Origin: Pseudomonadota bacterium | GTDB taxonomy: Bacteria > UBA10199 > 2-02-FULL-44-16 > JBDRGF01 | Assembly (NCBI GenBank): GCA_043818055.1 | Contig: JBDRGF010000049.1 | Span: forward strand, 1 to 10,335 | Length of the DNA: 10,335 nt | Reading direction: 5' to 3' | Shown: piece after piece, positions 1,150 through 10,134 of the stretch | Numbering within the stretch: position 1 is the stretch's first letter | Layout of the letters: the number at the start of each line of letters is the position of its first letter | Notes under the pieces: model-generated | What the model was told of the DNA's origin: nothing | The model's input: the letters and a program-made list of their open reading frames with translations, nothing else | Databases searched by the model: none | Program-made: the position numbers and the translations under genes

Positions 1150-1980
1150 ATGAAAGAACTGAAGAATTCCATTTTTGATCTTATTAAAAAGACCTCAACT
1201 GAGCTAGCTGATGATGTTGTCGCGGCTATGAAAAAAGCCTCGGAGCATGAGAAGGATGAACTCGCAATAACTACCCTCAACGATATTATAAAAAATATTG
1301 ATCTCGCAAAAAAAAACCAACTTCCGATCTGTCAGGATACTGGAACACCTCACTTTTTTATCGAAATTCCTGATGGATTCAAACAGCTCTCTTTAAGAGA
1401 CTCTATTCAATCTGCTTATGAAGAAGCTATTGTAAAAGGCCTTTTGCGCGACAATCTCAAAAAACCTCATATTCATATTGATGTAACTGATTCTTCATCT
1501 GTTTCAATCAGGCTTCTTTTAAAAGGTGGTGGATCTGAAAATGTGAGTGCACAATATTCGCTGCCGGATAAGCGAATCAATGCTCAGCGTGATGTGGATG
1601 GTGTGAGGAGAGCTCTTCTCGATGCGATCTACAAGGCGCAAGGGCGCGGCTGCTCGCCCGGCATCATCGGTGTATGTATCGGCGCCGATCGTGCAAAGGG
1701 CTATGAACTTGCTATGCGGGAGCTGCTAAGAAAGATTGATGATACCAATTCCGATGATGCACTTGCCAAATTCGAACTTAAGATCGTGAATGACGCAAAT
1801 AGTCTTGGCATTGGACCAATCGGTGTCGGCGGCAATTCCACTCTCCTCTCTTGTAAGATCACTGAGCACGAACGCCATCCTGCGAAGTTTTTTGTCAGCA
1901 TCGCTTACTGTTGCTGGGCTTTGAGACGGCAGGGAATAGAACTCAATAAAGATGGGGGGATTGAAAAATGGCTGTATTAA
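1150..1980 (+). CDS. Fe-S hydro-lyase, class I fumarate hydratase / tartrate dehydratase alpha subunit
   Basis: Family motifs PICQDTG, KGGGSEN, GRGCSPGIIGVCIG, LGIGPIGVGG and YCCWALRR. Overlaps the start of the beta-subunit gene by 13 nt. Confidence 0.93.
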   Translation: MKELKNSIFDLIKKTSTELADDVVAAMKKASEHEKDELAITTLNDIIKNIDLAKKNQLPICQDTGTPHFFIEIPDGFKQLSLRDSIQSAYEEAIVKGLLRDNLKKPHIHIDVTDSSSVSIRLLLKGGGSENVSAQYSLPDKRINAQRDVDGVRRALLDAIYKAQGRGCSPGIIGVCIGADRAKGYELAMRELLRKIDDTNSDDALAKFELKIVNDANSLGIGPIGVGGNSTLLSCKITEHERHPAKFFVSIAYCCWALRRQGIELNKDGGIEKWLY

Positions 1981-2687
1981 ATCCTCCGATTTCAGATGAA
2001 CAGGTTCAAAAACTCAAAGTAAGGGATCAAGTTCAGATCACAGGCACCATTTATACGATGCGGGATAAGGCGCACAAATATATAGTTGAGGGCGGAGAAC
2101 TGCCTTTTGATTTAAATGGGGGGGTGATTTTTCATTGTGGACCTATAATATCCCCCTCACCCATAGAGGCTGTCAGAAAATGTATTAATGTAGGGGTCGG
2201 CCCCTGTGCCGATCCGTTAAAACCCGGGCAGCCACAGGGGGCTGCCCCTACAAAAAGTAAAACATGTTGTTTTCAGACAGCCTCGCTAAGCTGTAGGGTC
2301 ATTGCGGCGGGGCCGACAACCTCTATGAGGATGGAGGACTTTGAGGCAGATGTTATAGAAAGGCTTAGGATAAAGGCGATTATCGGCAAGGGGGGTATGG
2401 GAGAGAGAACGACAAAGGCCTGCAAAGATTTTGGGTGTCTCTATCTGCAGGTGACAGGGGGTGCCGCCCAGCTAATAGCTTCACACATCGTGGCTGTTAA
2501 GGGTGTTTATTTTCTTAAAGAATTTGGGACTGCGGATGCGATCTGGGTGCTAGAAGTTAAAAATCTGCCGACTATAGTGACAATCGATTCGCATGGAAAT
2601 AATTTGCATGAGAAGATTAAATCCTTATCTAGTAAGAAATTGAAAAACTTACTAAGAAATAAAATCACCAATCACAAAGAAAATTGA
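1968..2687 (+). CDS. Fe-S hydro-lyase, class I fumarate hydratase / tartrate dehydratase beta subunit, with an in-frame repeat-derived insertion
   Basis: Motifs TGTIYTMRDKAH, FHCGP, AAGPTTSMRM, IIGKGGM, GGAA and IDSHGNNLH. About 40 extra residues lie between HCGPII and RVIAAGPTTS. SD-like GGGGGG upstream. Confidence 0.93.
   Translation: MAVLNPPISDEQVQKLKVRDQVQITGTIYTMRDKAHKYIVEGGELPFDLNGGVIFHCGPIISPSPIEAVRKCINVGVGPCADPLKPGQPQGAAPTKSKTCCFQTASLSCRVIAAGPTTSMRMEDFEADVIERLRIKAIIGKGGMGERTTKACKDFGCLYLQVTGGAAQLIASHIVAVKGVYFLKEFGTADAIWVLEVKNLPTIVTIDSHGNNLHEKIKSLSSKKLKNLLRNKITNHKEN
2166..2284. mobile_element. MITE-like element (119 bp) inside the beta-subunit CDS
   Basis: Left end GAGGCTGTCAGAAAA (2166-2180); right end TTTTCAGACAGCCTC (2270-2284) reverse-complements to GAGGCTGTCTGAAAA (14/15 match). 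It coincides with the non-homologous protein segment, aa 67-106. No clean target-site duplication. Confidence 0.85.
2189..2252. repeat. Inverted pair of GTAG-family REP sequences (REPIN-like) nested in the MITE-like element
   Basis: TGTAG-GGGTCGGC-CCCTGT-GCCGATCC (2189-2215) and, on the minus strand, TGTAG-GGGCAGCC-CCCTGT-GGCTGCCC (2252-2226). Same GTAG foot and loop; different but self-complementary stems. Confidence 0.88.
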
Positions 2688-3600
2688 TTTGATCCTGAAT
2701 GTATTGAAGCAATCCTCCCGTCTGAAGTGCCTTTCCTACGATGAAGTACTTATGACGATTCAGAAGTTTTGCAATTAACTCTTTTCCACGAGATAGACAA
2801 AAATCATGGACATGAGCGATCTTCTCGATAATCCCAGGCATCTCCTGAATTACCTTATCATAATATTCTTCAAGTCTCCCAGTTTCTATTGCATATAAAG
2901 TCATGTAACTGAATGTATTATCAAGCATATCTGCCAGATCGAACTTGCCCTCAGATTCCCATTCCTTAATTTGCTTTTGTTTTCTTTCCAACATTTTTTT
3001 AAGCGACTCTGCAACTTCAACGACATAGTCCTCACCCTTTCCAAATTTAATACAATGGCACACTATTTCATTGATGTTAAATGTAAACAAATCCCGTGCA
3101 TCATTTTCCTCTGAAGATAACAACCCCTCTTTAATTTCATCGAATTTCATATATATAGAGGGTAATGTTTTAATAAGAGTGTCGATATAGGCTTCATCAG
3201 ATCCGATTTCTAATATTCGATCGACTACTAAATTACCAAAACAATCAAGGTCCTCGGCAATTCTTCGATTTAGTTCGCTTCCAGTCTCTCTCAATTCAGT
3301 TGCCACAGATTCGATTAAAACCTCGAAGTAATCGACTATTCCTCCATTGGATTCAACATCATCATTGAACGCAGGTGTTTCATGGATTCGATCCGGAGTT
3401 AGAGGAATGCCATTAGCCCACACTCGTCCACCCATAGTAATATCCGTTTTGACAAATTTTTGTAAGCTGGAAAGACAGATATTCCTAAATGGATGCCTTT
3501 GAAAAGAGTCTATCGGATCTGAACGAAGATAAGGTACAAAATGCTCCGTTTGCATTTTAACACTATTCAACAAAATATTTTTATAGTGAATGGCCACCAC
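2665..3600 (-). CDS. Hypothetical protein (acidic, probably alpha-helical)
   Basis: 311-codon ORF. SD GAGGAG upstream of tandem GTG codons (start 3600 or 3597). Preceded by the shared promoter-like motif. Its 3' end overlaps the convergent beta-subunit gene by 23 nt. No family recognised. Confidence 0.8.
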   Translation of the reverse strand: MVAIHYKNILLNSVKMQTEHFVPYLRSDPIDSFQRHPFRNICLSSLQKFVKTDITMGGRVWANGIPLTPDRIHETPAFNDDVESNGGIVDYFEVLIESVATELRETGSELNRRIAEDLDCFGNLVVDRILEIGSDEAYIDTLIKTLPSIYMKFDEIKEGLLSSEENDARDLFTFNINEIVCHCIKFGKGEDYVVEVAESLKKMLERKQKQIKEWESEGKFDLADMLDNTFSYMTLYAIETGRLEEYYDKVIQEMPGIIEKIAHVHDFCLSRGKELIAKLLNRHKYFIVGKALQTGGLLQYIQDQINFLCDW

Positions 3601-3661: not shown

Positions 3662-4414
3662 TCTTTTTATCTTAAGGTGATTAGTGGAACAGGTATCTTT
3701 TTTGGGGCCTTTTGGAAAGATATTCATAAGCTCATGAACACCCGGGTACCCCTCAGGATCAGGAAGCGAGAGCTCATGATATGATTGAATTGCACTTCGA
3801 AACATCGTCTCAACTCTCTTTGCAACATCTATTTTCCAATCCTCCACTATAGTGCGGTGCAATGATGAGCATATACAATCGTAACGTTCATGCTCTGCAA
3901 GATATCTCCAAAGATGGCAAGTTCCTCGTTCTATAGCCGCATCCACTTCAGCCGGAACTTCTTTATCAAAAAATGACCTCGCTATGCTCAAAAGCACTCC
4001 CACGAGAGAGGAATTTTCATACATCACATGTTCGCCATCGTAAAATAAAAGTTCCGCACTATCCACAGCAGCTCTGGCCACTATTTCACAGCTTATTCCC
4101 TGATCCTGAGATAATTCCAATAAAAACGACCTGTTTGTGAAAAAGATGACCAGCCCTTCAGCAATATCAGCCATGATATCTGAAAAATGATCCAGAAAGA
4201 TACGTCCCCTCTTATCATTTATCTGCACACCAATTTCGATCGATTCTCTCCATAAATTTGAAACATTTGATAAGATAATTGGATATGGTGAGCTGATCGA
4301 ATCAGCCTGAGGCTTGTGTTTCCATGAAGATGATCTATGTTCAAGCCGTCTCATCTCATATCCAAATTGTGCAGTAAAATATAGAGGTCTCGAAAAATTT
4401 ATTACCCCGATCAT
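3659..4414 (-). CDS. Hypothetical protein
   Basis: 251-codon ORF with SD-like GGGGG upstream of the ATG. It fills the gap between the degP terminator and the next gene. No family recognised. Confidence 0.72.
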   Translation of the reverse strand: MIGVINFSRPLYFTAQFGYEMRRLEHRSSSWKHKPQADSISSPYPIILSNVSNLWRESIEIGVQINDKRGRIFLDHFSDIMADIAEGLVIFFTNRSFLLELSQDQGISCEIVARAAVDSAELLFYDGEHVMYENSSLVGVLLSIARSFFDKEVPAEVDAAIERGTCHLWRYLAEHERYDCICSSLHRTIVEDWKIDVAKRVETMFRSAIQSYHELSLPDPEGYPGVHELMNIFPKGPKKDTCSTNHLKIKR

Positions 4415-4491: not shown

Positions 4492-5955
4492 TTACAGCTG
4501 AAACGCGACATAGATGCTTGAGCGGCCGCGTTTTAGAAAAATGCGGACGATCTTTCCCTCTTTGAGCTGATCAACTACCTTTCGGTATTCCTCAATAGTC
4601 GATATCTTCGCCTGATTTATCTCCAATATCACATCCCCCGATCTGATCCCTGCAGACATCGCAGGAGAACCTGACTCGACATTCTTAACCACAACTCCCT
4701 TGAAATTAGCGGGGACATCGAGGGTATCTCTGTCCTCCAGTGTGATCGTCCTTGCTATTAATCCGATTTTGTCAGCTTTGTTACTGCCTGCTACAATCGT
4801 CTCGCTCTCCTCATTCCATGTTCCGATCGTAACTGAAGTTGTCATTTTTTTCTTGTCGCGTAGATATTCAAGATCAAGCTTGGTATCCGGCTTCGTGTTT
4901 CCAATGATGACAGCCAGCCCCTGTGGTGCATCAATCTTTTCCTTCCCAACTTTTAAGATAATATCCCCTCTTTGCAAACCTGCTTTGGCGGCAGGCGAAT
5001 TATTTACCACCTCGGAAAGAAGCACCCCTTCAGGCTTATCCATGTCAAACGATTTAGCCAGATCCTCGTCTATGATCTGAGTCACAACACCCAGCCAGCC
5101 CCTCGATACTTTTCCTTTCGAGATCAGGTCGGGAATGAGTCTTTCGATAAGCTTGCTCGGTATGGCAAAACCGATACCCTGAGCATTTGCAAAGATCATG
5201 GTGTTCATCCCTATGACTTTACCCTCCATATTGAAAAGAGGACCACCGCTATTTCCAGGATTGATCGAACAGTCGGTCTGAATGAACTTTGCAATTGGTC
5301 CTTGTCCGACCATGCGTCCGATAGCGCTGACAACACCAACTGTAACGGTATGACCGAGTCCAAATGGATTGCCTATCGCCATGACCCATTCTCCGGGCCG
5401 CAGGTTGTCGGAATTTCCAAATTCGAGATATGGAAGATCTCCCTTCGCATCTATTCTGATCACGGCTATATCCCGCGTATCATCGCCACCTACAACCTTT
5501 GCCTTAAACTTTCTTCCATCGGAAAGCTTGACTGTTATATCGTCCGCCATTCCTACGACATGATAGTTTGTGATTATATCACCGTTTTTGTTGATGATAA
5601 AGCCTGAGCCTAAGCTCTTAAGTTCTTGCTCCTGTGGCATCTGACCGCCAAAAAACTTATCGAAAAAATCATCAAATTGATCTTTTGGACCGAACCTTCC
5701 AAATGGCGACGGCATAGCCCTTCTTTTAAGCGTCTGACTTGTTGAGATATTGACAACGGACGTCTGAACCTTCTCAGCCAGATCTGCAAATGAGAAGGCT
5801 GGAATCACAATCTTTTTCTCAGGTTCGTCGGTCTTAAACCATGAGGCCAATTTTACCTGACCATCATATTGGCTTGCCTCTGCTATTGAAAATGAGATCA
5901 AAACTATAATCATCAAGAGCGAGCTTAAGAGACCCAATAACGATTTTTTCTTCAT
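4492..5955 (-). CDS. degP: Periplasmic HtrA/DegP/DegQ (Do family) serine endoprotease with two PDZ domains
   Basis: Signal peptide MKKKSLLGLLSSLLMIIVLISFSIAEA; motifs SLGSGFII, ITNYHVV, DIAVI and IQTDCSINPGNSGGPL; two PDZ domains (SPAAKAGLQRGDII, SPAMSAGIRSGDVI); SD AGGAGG. DegP and DegQ cannot be distinguished by eye. Confidence 0.95.
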   Translation of the reverse strand: MKKKSLLGLLSSLLMIIVLISFSIAEASQYDGQVKLASWFKTDEPEKKIVIPAFSFADLAEKVQTSVVNISTSQTLKRRAMPSPFGRFGPKDQFDDFFDKFFGGQMPQEQELKSLGSGFIINKNGDIITNYHVVGMADDITVKLSDGRKFKAKVVGGDDTRDIAVIRIDAKGDLPYLEFGNSDNLRPGEWVMAIGNPFGLGHTVTVGVVSAIGRMVGQGPIAKFIQTDCSINPGNSGGPLFNMEGKVIGMNTMIFANAQGIGFAIPSKLIERLIPDLISKGKVSRGWLGVVTQIIDEDLAKSFDMDKPEGVLLSEVVNNSPAAKAGLQRGDIILKVGKEKIDAPQGLAVIIGNTKPDTKLDLEYLRDKKKMTTSVTIGTWNEESETIVAGSNKADKIGLIARTITLEDRDTLDVPANFKGVVVKNVESGSPAMSAGIRSGDVILEINQAKISTIEEYRKVVDQLKEGKIVRIFLKRGRSSIYVAFQL

Positions 5956-6008: not shown

Positions 6009-6305
6009 TTACTTCGAAAGTTCCAAAAATTTCAATCGCAGATCGTAGAGCAGGTGTTCGATAAGCCTCAACTCATTATCATCGAGGTTTCCCTTAGTCT
6101 TCACCTCCAGCACTCCAATAATATCTATAGTCTGTTTTGCCAGAGTTAAGTCCTTCTCGACACCTCCTGTCACAGGGTTTGGAACTGTACCGAGATGAAC
6201 CTGCGCTGATGAAGCTAGCGAGAGGACGAATGTAGAAAAGTCTATTGGCTTTAGGTTATCCATATAATTGTTCTTTCCTGACTCAGTATTAGTTTTTTCA
6301 GTCAT
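6009..6305 (-). CDS. DUF1844 domain-containing protein
   Basis: IDFSTFVLSLASSAQVHLG..P...DLTLAKQTIDIIGVLEVKTKGNL...E...LLYDLRLKF fits the DUF1844 pattern as recalled. SD AGGGGG. Likely co-transcribed with degP (53-nt gap). Confidence 0.88.
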   Translation of the reverse strand: MTEKTNTESGKNNYMDNLKPIDFSTFVLSLASSAQVHLGTVPNPVTGGVEKDLTLAKQTIDIIGVLEVKTKGNLDDNELRLIEHLLYDLRLKFLELSK

Positions 6306-6458: not shown

Positions 6459-7232
6459 GTGAATATTAAAAAATGTCTACTAATGGCGATCCTTACCATC
6501 TTTTTATCGTCATGTGCCAAAGATGTTCCGTCGTTCAAACAGGGAGACGCAGAGGGAGAGCTCAAAAACTGCATATGGCTGCTCCAGAATAAGAAGTTCG
6601 AGGATGGCGTACAGTGCCTCGAGATCCTCAAGGCAAGGCATCCGGGAAGCATGGCTGCCAGAGATGCTGAGCTTGCGGTCGGCGATGCCTATTTCAGAAA
6701 AAAGGACTATTTAAGCGCGGTTGAAGCATATCAGAGCTTCGTGCGACTTTATCCCACTCATCCCAAGGTTGGATACGCTTACTATAAAATAGGACTCAGT
6801 TATTTAAAGGAGAGCCCTAAAGCGATCGACCGGGATCAGACCTATCTATTCGAAGCGGAGAGGTACCTCAAAATCTCTATCTCAAGATTCGGTGATACCA
6901 ATTATCACGCCTTGGCAAAGAAATACCTGAACGACACCAGGCTGCGCTTGGCCAAAAGAGAGTTCTATATCGGAAGATTTTACTACAGGACAGGGGAGTA
7001 TATCTCATCAGTTCCGCGTTTTAGAGCTATAGTAGAAGAATATCCCGACGCAGGTTTGAACGAAAAGTCGCTCTATTATATGACTATCGCCAGCATCAGG
7101 CTCAAAGAACTGGAAGATGCCCGGGTTTCATTCACCATGCTCTCGACAAAATTTCCAAGTAGCAAATTTACAAAAAAAGCGGAGGGGAAACTTATCAGAG
7201 CCTCTGAGAAGGAAAACAAAAAAAGCGAGTAG
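6459..7232 (+). CDS. bamD: Outer membrane protein assembly factor BamD (TPR lipoprotein)
   Basis: Lipobox FLSSC; TPR repeats; BamD-type motifs YQSFVRLYPTHPKVGYAYYKIGLSY, IDRDQT and RLAKREFYIGRFYYR; SD AAGGAG before the GTG. Confidence 0.93.
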   Translation: MNIKKCLLMAILTIFLSSCAKDVPSFKQGDAEGELKNCIWLLQNKKFEDGVQCLEILKARHPGSMAARDAELAVGDAYFRKKDYLSAVEAYQSFVRLYPTHPKVGYAYYKIGLSYLKESPKAIDRDQTYLFEAERYLKISISRFGDTNYHALAKKYLNDTRLRLAKREFYIGRFYYRTGEYISSVPRFRAIVEEYPDAGLNEKSLYYMTIASIRLKELEDARVSFTMLSTKFPSSKFTKKAEGKLIRASEKENKKSE

Positions 7233-7261: not shown

Positions 7262-7336
7262 CTCGCTTTTATGTTAATTCCAGCAAAACTAATCCTTAAC
7301 ATCGTGTGCGGATCTTTCCTGTAATATACCGATTAT

Positions 7337-7432
7337 TGTAGGGGTGGGTTTCAAACCCACCCGGAGTAGATTCACAGGCAGGTTTTCAGCCAAAGGCTGA
7401 ATCCACCTCTGGCGGAAAAACCTGCCCCTACA
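7337..7432. repeat. Inverted pair of GTAG-family REPs; the right copy has a double mini-hairpin inserted in its loop
   Basis: Left TGTAG-GGGTGGGTTT-C-AAACCCACCC (7337-7362). Right GGCAGGTTT-[TCAGCC-AAA-GGCTGA-A-TCCACC-TCT-GGCGGA]-A-AAACCTGCCCCTACA (7377-7432). Lies between convergent genes. Confidence 0.88.
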
Positions 7433-7451
7433 AAAAAACTAGCACACAGCT

Positions 7452-8495
7452 TTAATCCTTATAGGCCAGCATAACCTTTGAACCTTTAACATCTTTTGTT
7501 GTTGATATCATTACTTCAGGTGTTGACCATCCATCATCATCCTTATCCATGTTGACTATTTTGATCTCCACAACTGCTTCTGGAATACTGGATAACTGCT
7601 TTGATAAATCATTTGCTGCATAAACAGGCATTTTTAATTCTTCCTCGTGGTTATTAGGTGTACCCATGCCCTTTAGATCACTTAAAATCAGCTCGCGCGC
7701 CCTTCCGATATATGAGCTGCCAACAAGTGCGTTTTTTGTGAAAGAGGTTAGAGCATCAAGCTTCTTAAGATCGACAGTTCCATCTTCGTTATACAGCTTT
7801 ATAAATCTATCCTCATAATTTATCCTCAAGACTCTGACAAGCTCAGCAGCTTTGGAATCAGAGGTCTTGCAATAGGAGAACCTCTTTTGAAGCTCCTCTT
7901 TTTGGGTTCTGGTTATCAAACCCGTTGCTACGATTTGACCCAGGTCACTCTCAGCCTTTTTGACAGGAGTTTTAACACCCGAGAGCACTGCCCTTGCGCT
8001 AAACATCCGAAAATCAGAACCAAAGATCTTCCCTTTTAAGCCATTCAACTCTCCAAGCAATCCGGCTGAAGCTATTTTCCTGGAAGTGTTTTCATAACTA
8101 TCTTTCTGTGCAAATAATTTATTCTCATTTTTCTCCACAGCTTTTTTTGGAGAAATCTTTTTTAGAAAAGATCTTGCAACATCTTCGATGCATTTAGCAC
8201 CTTTGAATTTAGTTTTGATATCCTTAATCAATCTCTCCTTTTCATGTTCATTTAGATCTATTCTATCATACCTCTTCATAAACCAGCCTTTGAGTGCCGA
8301 CTCGAGAACTTTCGCTCTCTCAAAAGGTTTAGCGCAGATGATTCTCTGTACAACGTCATACAACCTGTCGAAACCAAATTTCTGATCTACAAGAAGCTCT
8401 GTGAGCAAATTCCCCAAAGCTCTCTCCAGGGCTTTTGCATCGCCCCCCTGATAACTACAATACAAATCGCTGCGCACTTTAGATGATACGTCCAT
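7452..8495 (-). CDS. Hypothetical protein, divergent paralog of 9197-10000
   Basis: 347-codon Lys-rich ORF with SD GGGGGT; shows gapless similarity to the neighbouring ORF. Confidence 0.85.
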   Translation of the reverse strand: MDVSSKVRSDLYCSYQGGDAKALERALGNLLTELLVDQKFGFDRLYDVVQRIICAKPFERAKVLESALKGWFMKRYDRIDLNEHEKERLIKDIKTKFKGAKCIEDVARSFLKKISPKKAVEKNENKLFAQKDSYENTSRKIASAGLLGELNGLKGKIFGSDFRMFSARAVLSGVKTPVKKAESDLGQIVATGLITRTQKEELQKRFSYCKTSDSKAAELVRVLRINYEDRFIKLYNEDGTVDLKKLDALTSFTKNALVGSSYIGRARELILSDLKGMGTPNNHEEELKMPVYAANDLSKQLSSIPEAVVEIKIVNMDKDDDGWSTPEVMISTTKDVKGSKVMLAYKD

Positions 8496-9196: not shown

Positions 9197-10000
9197 TCAG
9201 ATAATCTCAATCAACAGATCGGCAACTTCGTTAATATAGTCGGCAACTCCGGGGACATTAAACACTCTGACTATAATTGCCTGAAGTGAGTCCTCGTTTT
9301 TAAAATTATGTATTATCCCAGGATATACCGCATCGAAGAGCATTTTCGCCTTTTGCGAATCTCCACTTGCGCTCATAATCTCTTTCTTGAGATCACGCGC
9401 TTGCTCCCATGTCAGAACCCGCTCCGAGACCAGCTCGGCAAGAGTTGTGTATAAGCCCTGATCCTTATCAAAGAGCTCCTTTTTCTCCTGCACCTTATTG
9501 AGTGGCGCCCAGTTAGAAAAACTCATAGCTATTGGTTTTTCTGTGATAATAGCGATTTTTTTTCTTGGAGTTGCAACTTTCTGAAATGTATCTTTATCTG
9601 TTGTGACCAGCTTTTGTTCTTTTTTATCACATAATTCAACTTCATTCACAAATGCTGTCAGCTCAACCATCGCCTCCACAGCAAAATCCCCGATCTCCTC
9701 GGACTTAGACATCGCTTTATTGATTGCAGCTTTAACATCATCATAGGTAAACTTTTTTCCATCTACTTTATTGAGGAGTCCTGCCACCCACGGTTTGAAA
9801 AACTGTGTTAAAATTCTCACTCTATCTTTATTATTTGACTGGACTATCTTATTTACTGTTGGCTCAACGATTCCGGCATCTTCATCTGTTGTAGCAATCG
9901 CAAAGAGTGTTTCCCCCAAGAGCTGTCTCATCTTTTTTATGGCTTCATCTTTATTGATAGGTTCGTAAGTGATCTGAACAACTGCATTAACTTGTGACAT
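9197..10000 (-). CDS. Hypothetical protein (267 aa), divergent paralog of 7452-8495
   Basis: Start moved from 10081 to the ATG at 10000 (MSQVNAV) for three reasons: SD AAGGAGG lies 5 nt upstream; the promoter-like motif lies within the 81-nt extension; and residue numbering then matches the paralog (Y12, V49, R60, W71, D80). Confidence 0.85.
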   Translation of the reverse strand: MSQVNAVVQITYEPINKDEAIKKMRQLLGETLFAIATTDEDAGIVEPTVNKIVQSNNKDRVRILTQFFKPWVAGLLNKVDGKKFTYDDVKAAINKAMSKSEEIGDFAVEAMVELTAFVNEVELCDKKEQKLVTTDKDTFQKVATPRKKIAIITEKPIAMSFSNWAPLNKVQEKKELFDKDQGLYTTLAELVSERVLTWEQARDLKKEIMSASGDSQKAKMLFDAVYPGIIHNFKNEDSLQAIIVRVFNVPGVADYINEVADLLIEII

Positions 10001-10028
10001 TAAGGCCTCCTTTTTGTTGTCATATACA

Positions 10029-10058
10029 TTATCGGCTGGTAGAGGGTAGAAGTTGCTA
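10029..10058 (-). promoter_or_regulatory. Putative alternative-sigma (sigma28/FliA-like -10) promoter, copy 2
   Basis: Minus strand TAGCAACTT-ctaccctctac-CAGCCGATAA, 28 nt before the ATG at 10000. Confidence 0.75.
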
Positions 10059-10134
10059 TTTTGGAAAAAAAACAAAGACAAGTAAACAGTTGCTAGTGTT
10101 TAGAAGAATTCTACTCTTAATTCTGGGCTTTTTC

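Follow-up and report, generated by a model that had tools for sequence, protein, structure and literature searches.

A palindromic repeat carried in frame at a hairpin tip of a class I fumarase beta subunit in a Pseudomonadota bacterium

The beta subunit gene of a two-subunit class I fumarate hydratase in a Pseudomonadota bacterium contains, in frame, one copy of a palindromic repeat that is found throughout the genome. The repeat lies at the tip of a beta-hairpin and is probably translated as 41 disordered residues, a neutral cargo of an enzyme that still works but is only weakly selected. The insert derives from a repeat, its frame is open, the catalytic residues of both subunits are kept and the same loop has been lengthened repeatedly in other bacteria. 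The first-pass annotation had proposed that the enzyme tolerated sequence created from repeat DNA while remaining under selection; a multicopy repeat, its position in frame and a predicted surface loop are supported, tolerance is likely, and the claim of lasting selection was overstated. The DNA analysed (the window, 10,335 nt) is one whole contig (C49) of a 2.93 Mb genome that is 93.6% complete. The features at the fumarase locus are:

1150-1980, plus strand: class I fumarate hydratase alpha subunit, 276 aa (PF05681, TIGR00722)
1968-2687, plus strand: class I fumarate hydratase beta subunit, 239 aa (PF05683, TIGR00723; 7xky_B, 5dni and 2isb by sequence and fold)
2151-2294, plus strand: lengthened hairpin loop, aa 62-109, 48 residues against 7 in orthologs, predicted disordered
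2154-2162, plus strand: 9-nt match to the first block of the BoxC/TM triplex consensus (chance within 30 nt ~0.002, judged post hoc)
2166-2284, unstranded: composite repeat, 119 nt, terminal inverted repeats around a REP pair
2166-2180, plus strand: left terminal inverted repeat, 15 nt
2189-2252, unstranded: inverted pair of GTAG-tagged REP hairpins
2270-2284, minus strand: right terminal inverted repeat, 15 nt, one mismatch

The original description of the element at 2166-2284 holds: it is a unit of 119 nt within the coding sequence, with inverted ends matching at 14 of 15 positions and an internal GTAG-REP pair. These ends are the sole such pair spaced 100-140 nt apart in the window, and none of 100 shuffles yielded one. 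The element folds into a single long hairpin (-59.4 kcal/mol, z -6.7), and each of the two inner arms is a short GC-rich stem-loop with an unpaired GTAG end, the form expected of GTAG-REPs. Its right end is uncertain by 2-6 nt, the closest copy, on contig C8, having 5 of the next 6 bases in common. As also annotated previously, aa 67-106 read without a stop and include C72, C80, C100 and C101, followed by C109. Relative to orthologs, exactly 41 codons have been gained. A TA duplication can be read, the element taken as 121 nt plus 2 bp giving 123 nt, but this is inconsistent across copies, fitting the fumarase copy and that on C8 and not the other four of six; a target duplication longer than 2 bp is present in none of the six.

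The short match immediately left of the element corresponds to the first block of the BoxC/PIT/TM intrastrand-triplex repeat, the consensus of which is given in PMC4666352. The same block opens BoxC-like repeats on contigs C99, C28, C33 and C50. To judge from the sequence, the 9 nt are a possible remnant of an earlier repeat in the loop, one that presumably formed a hairpin. Only the one block remains here, whereas the E. coli motif is, in the available part of that source, always intergenic. By eye, palindromes in homologs L047 and P0074 and in five protease paralogs described below are also BoxC-like.

Both genes keep the known active-site residues. The beta start overlaps the alpha stop, the beta reading frame is open and the PF05683 and TIGR00723 matches each fall in two stretches with the insert between them; both subunits score under the equivalog cut-offs. 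All 15 catalytic and cluster residues named for the Methanocaldococcus jannaschii enzyme are kept, despite ~50% identity to homologs. The alpha subunit retains C61, C168, C255, Q62, D63, R100, the KGGGS motif and H243, and the beta subunit R32, T117, T118, R121 and K141. KGGGS, at aa 125-129 of alpha, fits the KGXGS motif assigned to fumarases, the counterpart in L-tartrate dehydratase being AGGGC, in the portion of bioRxiv 10.1101/2023.06.17.545066 that was available. The two-subunit M. jannaschii enzyme (7xky; bioRxiv 10.1101/2022.09.03.506457), as far as the accessible text describes it, shares the fold, the alpha-beta gene pair, the three cluster cysteines, all named active-site residues and the KGXGS motif with the pair described here, which differs in a beta hairpin 41 residues longer and an alpha subunit shortened after its substrate-binding arginine.

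No other fumarase was found in the genome, the Lyase_1 match being PurB and the FAD_binding_2 match NadB, and neither was an SdhA-type gene. With one query, only 3 of the 21 genomes of the same order yielded the gene. In two genomes of the order the fumarase genes lie close to clpB, and they therefore look inherited. The enzyme likely recycles fumarate produced by PurB rather than serving a full TCA cycle, and this restricted role would explain weak selection on it.

An AlphaFold model of the beta subunit, which matches 7xky_B with a TM of 0.88, places 140 of 239 residues at pLDDT of at least 90, with core blocks mostly at 88-98. The insert, between strands 59-62 and 110-114, has a pLDDT of ~50. 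The model predicts a disordered hairpin tip, in agreement with the surface loop that the annotation had suggested looking for, and we read the loop as a permissive hairpin tip on the strength of this prediction and of the homologs.

The length of this loop was compared as the spacing between the HCGP and GPTT motifs, which is 59 here and 18 in all eight relatives first aligned. Among 19 genomes of the phylum that could be parsed, the spacing is 18 in 18 and 19 in one, one more two-subunit locus being unparsed. The statement that family members normally have only a short loop does not extend to the family as a whole, in which spacings of up to 56 occur. Six of the 119 top homologs have a shorter loop (spacing 14) and nine a longer one. 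Over four protein searches the spacing is at least 23 in 45 of 350 scored proteins (378 examined), so that the present insert forms the longest loop in this set. The least biased sample, representatives of 50% clusters, gives at least 23 in 9 of 122. Long loops are most conspicuous among homologs of P0074 (Nitrospirota-like by their names), occurring in 36 of 119, a share that may be inflated as the query itself had an insert. These loops fall into at least three peptide classes that resemble two types of palindrome and tandemly repeated heptamers. Five other spacings between motifs are of a single length in 112-120 of 120 rows. When a tree of this set was calculated without the loop, by a quick method lacking bootstrap and with insert classes taken from our own patterns, insert presence changed 24 times, at least seven of which are forced by strongly supported branches; one starred clade keeps an insert in 7 of 8 rows.

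The DNA encoding long loops was collected by a pattern that sees only loops with one His codon and gives no frequency; it returned 32 matches, of which 14 that were not fumarase loops were dropped, leaving 18. A Verrucomicrobia insert (L032), a dimer of 77 nt, has 99 matches within the genome that carries it, an Anaerolineales insert (L047) is a hairpin with only three weak matches in its own genome, and two of the long loops seen as DNA look like heptamer runs. The empty site that close relatives had been expected to reveal was not seen among 93 phylum genomes (the same family being absent from them), a metagenome scan (seven loci, one of them close), three protein searches and seven sequencing runs; the second-strain contig L075 carries the insert. 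The single case is ordinary and the site is the useful result: one hairpin tip before the catalytic threonines has acquired repeats of four or more kinds across several phyla, with other spacings fixed. The loop offers a natural series in which to ask whether coding palindromes are neutral and whether hairpins attract further repeats, and it is a candidate site for inserting tags into class I fumarases.

The genome abounds in related sequence. The search for further copies that the annotation recommended revealed five more that are near full length, with 77-93% identity, and nhmmer gave 135 matches to the element. GTAG-REPs amount to 142 monomers in 93 clusters, 15 monomers falling in reading frames of at least 150 aa and seven deep inside them, two of these being weak matches; high copy number, mostly extragenic location and frequent inverted dimers are typical of REPs. 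Paired ends of the element's type occur 21 times, 13 with repeat cargo of varying kind. Only one of these 13 repeat-bearing composites, that of the fumarase gene, lies in a reading frame of at least 120 aa, in a genome of which long reading frames make up 85%, and only 5 of 36 frames are open over the six copies. By eye, four composites are nested within the loop of a different palindrome, and half-hairpins flank several others on one side. Elsewhere in the phylum matches are confined to the inner REP pair and occur in 17 of the 92 other genomes. A loose pattern based on a single terminal repeat gave mostly chance matches and was dropped.

The rarity implied by the annotation is not supported, given many inserts in the same loop elsewhere and the other coding sites in this genome. 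A k-mer screen gave 20 matches at 19 sites deep in long reading frames, a few of them weak or in doubtful frames, which makes the fumarase insert one of about 19 candidate in-frame repeat sites. At the site in MnmG (C77:3430, L134) there are ~23 residues more than in the 3cp2 chain. MutL, HemW and ComEC contain in-frame repeats too (C12:9993 L135, C26:3227 L082, C102:14180 L083), the HemW loop varying in length in three relatives. Repeat-bearing genes at C102:23171, C44:4848 and C96:418 resemble what we take to be a UvrD/AddA helicase, an AsmA-like protein and a restriction-modification enzyme.

The element resembles a MITE in its size of 119 nt, its inverted ends, the lack of a transposase gene and the occurrence of six near-full copies with the same ends. 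Bacterial MITEs such as ERIC, RUP and NEMIS, which are described in the accessible part of PMC3733652 as 70-300 bp long with terminal inverted repeats of 15-30 bp, share with it size, short terminal repeats, multiple copies and the absence of their own transposase. It differs from them in that neither a consistent target duplication nor a cognate transposase was found, in the variable cargo enclosed by its ends and in its frequent nesting in other hairpins. A search for an autonomous insertion sequence covered the PF13751, PF01609 and PF01797 families. No PF13751 transposase was found in the genome, four DDE_Tnp_1 (PF01609) genes were without these ends within 250 nt (by eye) and, as to a cognate RAYT, neither of two Y1_Tnp (PF01797) genes has these REPs within 400 nt in a genome of the completeness given above. 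RAYT genes can be lost, according to the same partial source (PMC3733652). Because no target duplication is consistent among the six copies, no transposase with these ends was found and only the inner REPs occur elsewhere, the element is termed here a REP composite that looks like a MITE; the label MITE used before is not retained, membership being unproven.

Intragenic GTAG-REP dimers and the coding palindromes of Rickettsia are already published events of this kind. In the available text of Di Nocera et al. 2013 (PMC3733652), intragenic GTAG dimers encode 20-30 aa and clusters 43-82 aa, and neutrality in flexible loops is suggested. Those REP-decorated proteins likewise have a GTAG-tagged dimer wholly within the reading frame of a known protein; here the dimer is wrapped in 15-nt inverted ends and lies in a metabolic Fe-S enzyme. 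Inserts in the same gene are described there as mostly at differing sites, except in recB of two Xanthomonas, whereas a single loop of the fumarase has received unrelated repeats in different phyla. Rickettsia palindromic elements in frame, and MITE fusions, are reviewed in PMC10969869. As far as that review could be consulted, these elements are also palindromes of ~120-150 nt translated in frame as extra peptides of unrelated housekeeping genes, and the fumarase insert, in frame in a predicted surface loop of a conserved gene, is of their type. They are often in frame with a conserved peptide, while the present composite is genic only once in 13 cases and has most of its frames closed. Literature searches found nothing on repeats in this fumarase loop, which is weak evidence of absence as the two subjects were treated separately.

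Combined, these comparisons are consistent with a scheme in which repeats would land genome-wide and the genic survivors would be those that read through without a stop, add a multiple of three nucleotides overall and fall where the protein permits it. The hairpin tip may be such a site, just before the catalytic GPTT yet apparently dispensable, and a BoxC-type hairpin may have been present in the loop before the composite arrived. As a guess, mobilisation could depend on a REP-type HUH tyrosine transposase or a hairpin nuclease acting in trans.

Whether the enzyme stayed under selection, as annotated, is a question with evidence on both sides. Signs of purifying selection are present, but a clean in-frame deletion in alpha and an apparent acceleration of both subunits had been missed. 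The deletion removes 15 residues after LRDN and the substrate-binding arginine (near nt 1455; 1444-1470, aa 99-107), a segment that all 119 homologs and all eight relatives possess. Distance ratios to five relatives are 1.35 for alpha and 1.64 for beta as against 0.99 for ClpB, the one control gene. Of 139 conserved columns alpha deviates at 38, including 8 gaps, a count exceeded by a single one of the 119 homologs; beta deviates at 5 of 58, equal to or above all but 4 of 119. Because alpha has lost residues kept by every homolog and both subunits seem to evolve faster than ClpB, the alignments suggest that selection on them is likely relaxed, although not absent.

A leaning towards synonymous changes is seen in two comparisons. 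The first is with contig L075, of a second strain, which covers 669-2813 and is 99.39% identical with 13 differences, none in the element. Nine of these lie within 84 nt, alpha and the rest of beta being identical:

2552-2635, plus strand: divergent patch between strains, 9 differences, 6 synonymous and 3 not

The synonymous excess in the patch has a p of 0.005-0.04. The patch is likely a recombined tract, and it may come from a strain without the insert. The second comparison is among copies of the element, where three of the four changes private to the fumarase copy are synonymous (p 0.04-0.11); these changes may be older than the insertion.

The main rival to relaxed selection is early decay, in which selection on the operon has lapsed, the alpha deletion and the beta insertion became fixed and the frames remain open for want of time. 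We consider this possible, though unlikely. It would account for a deletion shared by none of the 119 homologs, accelerated rates in both subunits, the patchy occurrence in the order and the missing SdhA-type gene. Open frames do not weigh heavily against it, as a substitution-only simulation left both open in 27-50% of runs at 1.7-3.4% divergence. A simulated neutral operon at 3.4% divergence stayed open in 0.5-27% of runs, which counts for continued selection. Early decay is opposed by the complete set of catalytic and cluster residues at ~50% identity, by the synonymous bias of the changes and by the absence of a second fumarase among the genes found. Age also speaks against it. A contig of run X6, from a relative ~9% divergent, aligns without a gap across the alpha deletion, at 23 differences in 254 nt, and the deletion therefore looks old and shared. 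It looks survivable as well, since the shortened alpha subunit models at a pLDDT of 90.9. A working enzyme under relaxed selection remains our preferred reading of the operon.

Recruitment of the Cys-rich insert is very unlikely, be it for metal binding beside the cluster, for redox sensing or as replacement of the lost alpha segment, with hairpin families replacing each other at the loop. Its appeal lies in four cysteines beside an Fe-S active site in the longest loop scored, in an insert unchanged in the second strain with mostly synonymous private changes, and in its coincidence with a unique alpha deletion. The Cys codons, however, come with the repeat, as intergenic copies on C8 and C131 read much the same peptide; the insert is predicted to be disordered, and the other inserts in this loop are unrelated to the element and mostly Cys-free. 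The strain comparison tells little, as L075 is identical to the window across all of alpha. The special weight placed on new Cys-rich sequence is thus not justified, and nothing suggests any role for the insert cysteines.

It is more improbable still that the hairpin is removed or bypassed at the RNA level and the insert left untranslated. The stable stem would bring the ends of the element together, but no joint across it was seen in seven runs, two of them RNA-labelled, whose contigs show presence rather than absence; no Rfam family reached gathering score, and a net insert of whole codons would make removal needless. The RNA-labelled run X1 covers 1335-2117 and 2319-3217 and leaves the element uncovered. 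This proves neither transcription nor splicing because the run covers 26 of 30 window bins, including intergenic DNA. Run X13 contained next to nothing.

The insert is genuine and not an assembly artefact. The annotation had called for reads across both junctions, which are spanned by contig L075 and by unitigs of run X3 (1934-2212 and 2183-2365) that tile them with no differences; unitigs of run X2 cover the left junction. Assembly graphs do break at repeats, and reads from other copies map onto the element, but a chimera produced by the repeat is already largely refuted by the X3 tiling, by the second strain and by four bases private to the fumarase copy, and its probability is negligible. 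The runs that best match the window are labelled groundwater, biofilm or plain metagenome, and X2 or X3 may be the source sample.

Nine large protease-like paralogs (C35, C38, C87, C99, C100, C103, C107, C109, C148; L085-L087, L090) contain an in-frame palindrome at one site, a GTAG-REP pair in four of them and a BoxC-like hairpin in five. It seems that repeat families swap for one another at this coding site, which provides a second natural series. Several BoxC-like hairpins also lie on either side of a DUF559 gene (L128:1220-2160, C73), with no tie to the fumarase element.

The remainder of the window contains ordinary neighbours:

3-851: ClpB, N-terminal part
4495-5955: DegP-type protease
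6012-6305: DUF1844 protein
6459-7229: YfiO/BamD-type lipoprotein

The ClpB assignment is our presumption from motifs in 3-851. Four minus-strand reading frames of 251-347 aa (2668-3600, 3662-4414, 7455-8495 and 9200-10081) had no Pfam match. A promoter scan gave four sites, with 3.5 expected by chance, and no terminators were found. Between the divergent clpB and fumarase genes, at 912-1043, lies a second composite with similar inverted ends but a different hairpin cargo. An intergenic REP cluster occupies 7283-7526; these 244 nt are skipped by a contig of run X6, which suggests an empty site in a relative.
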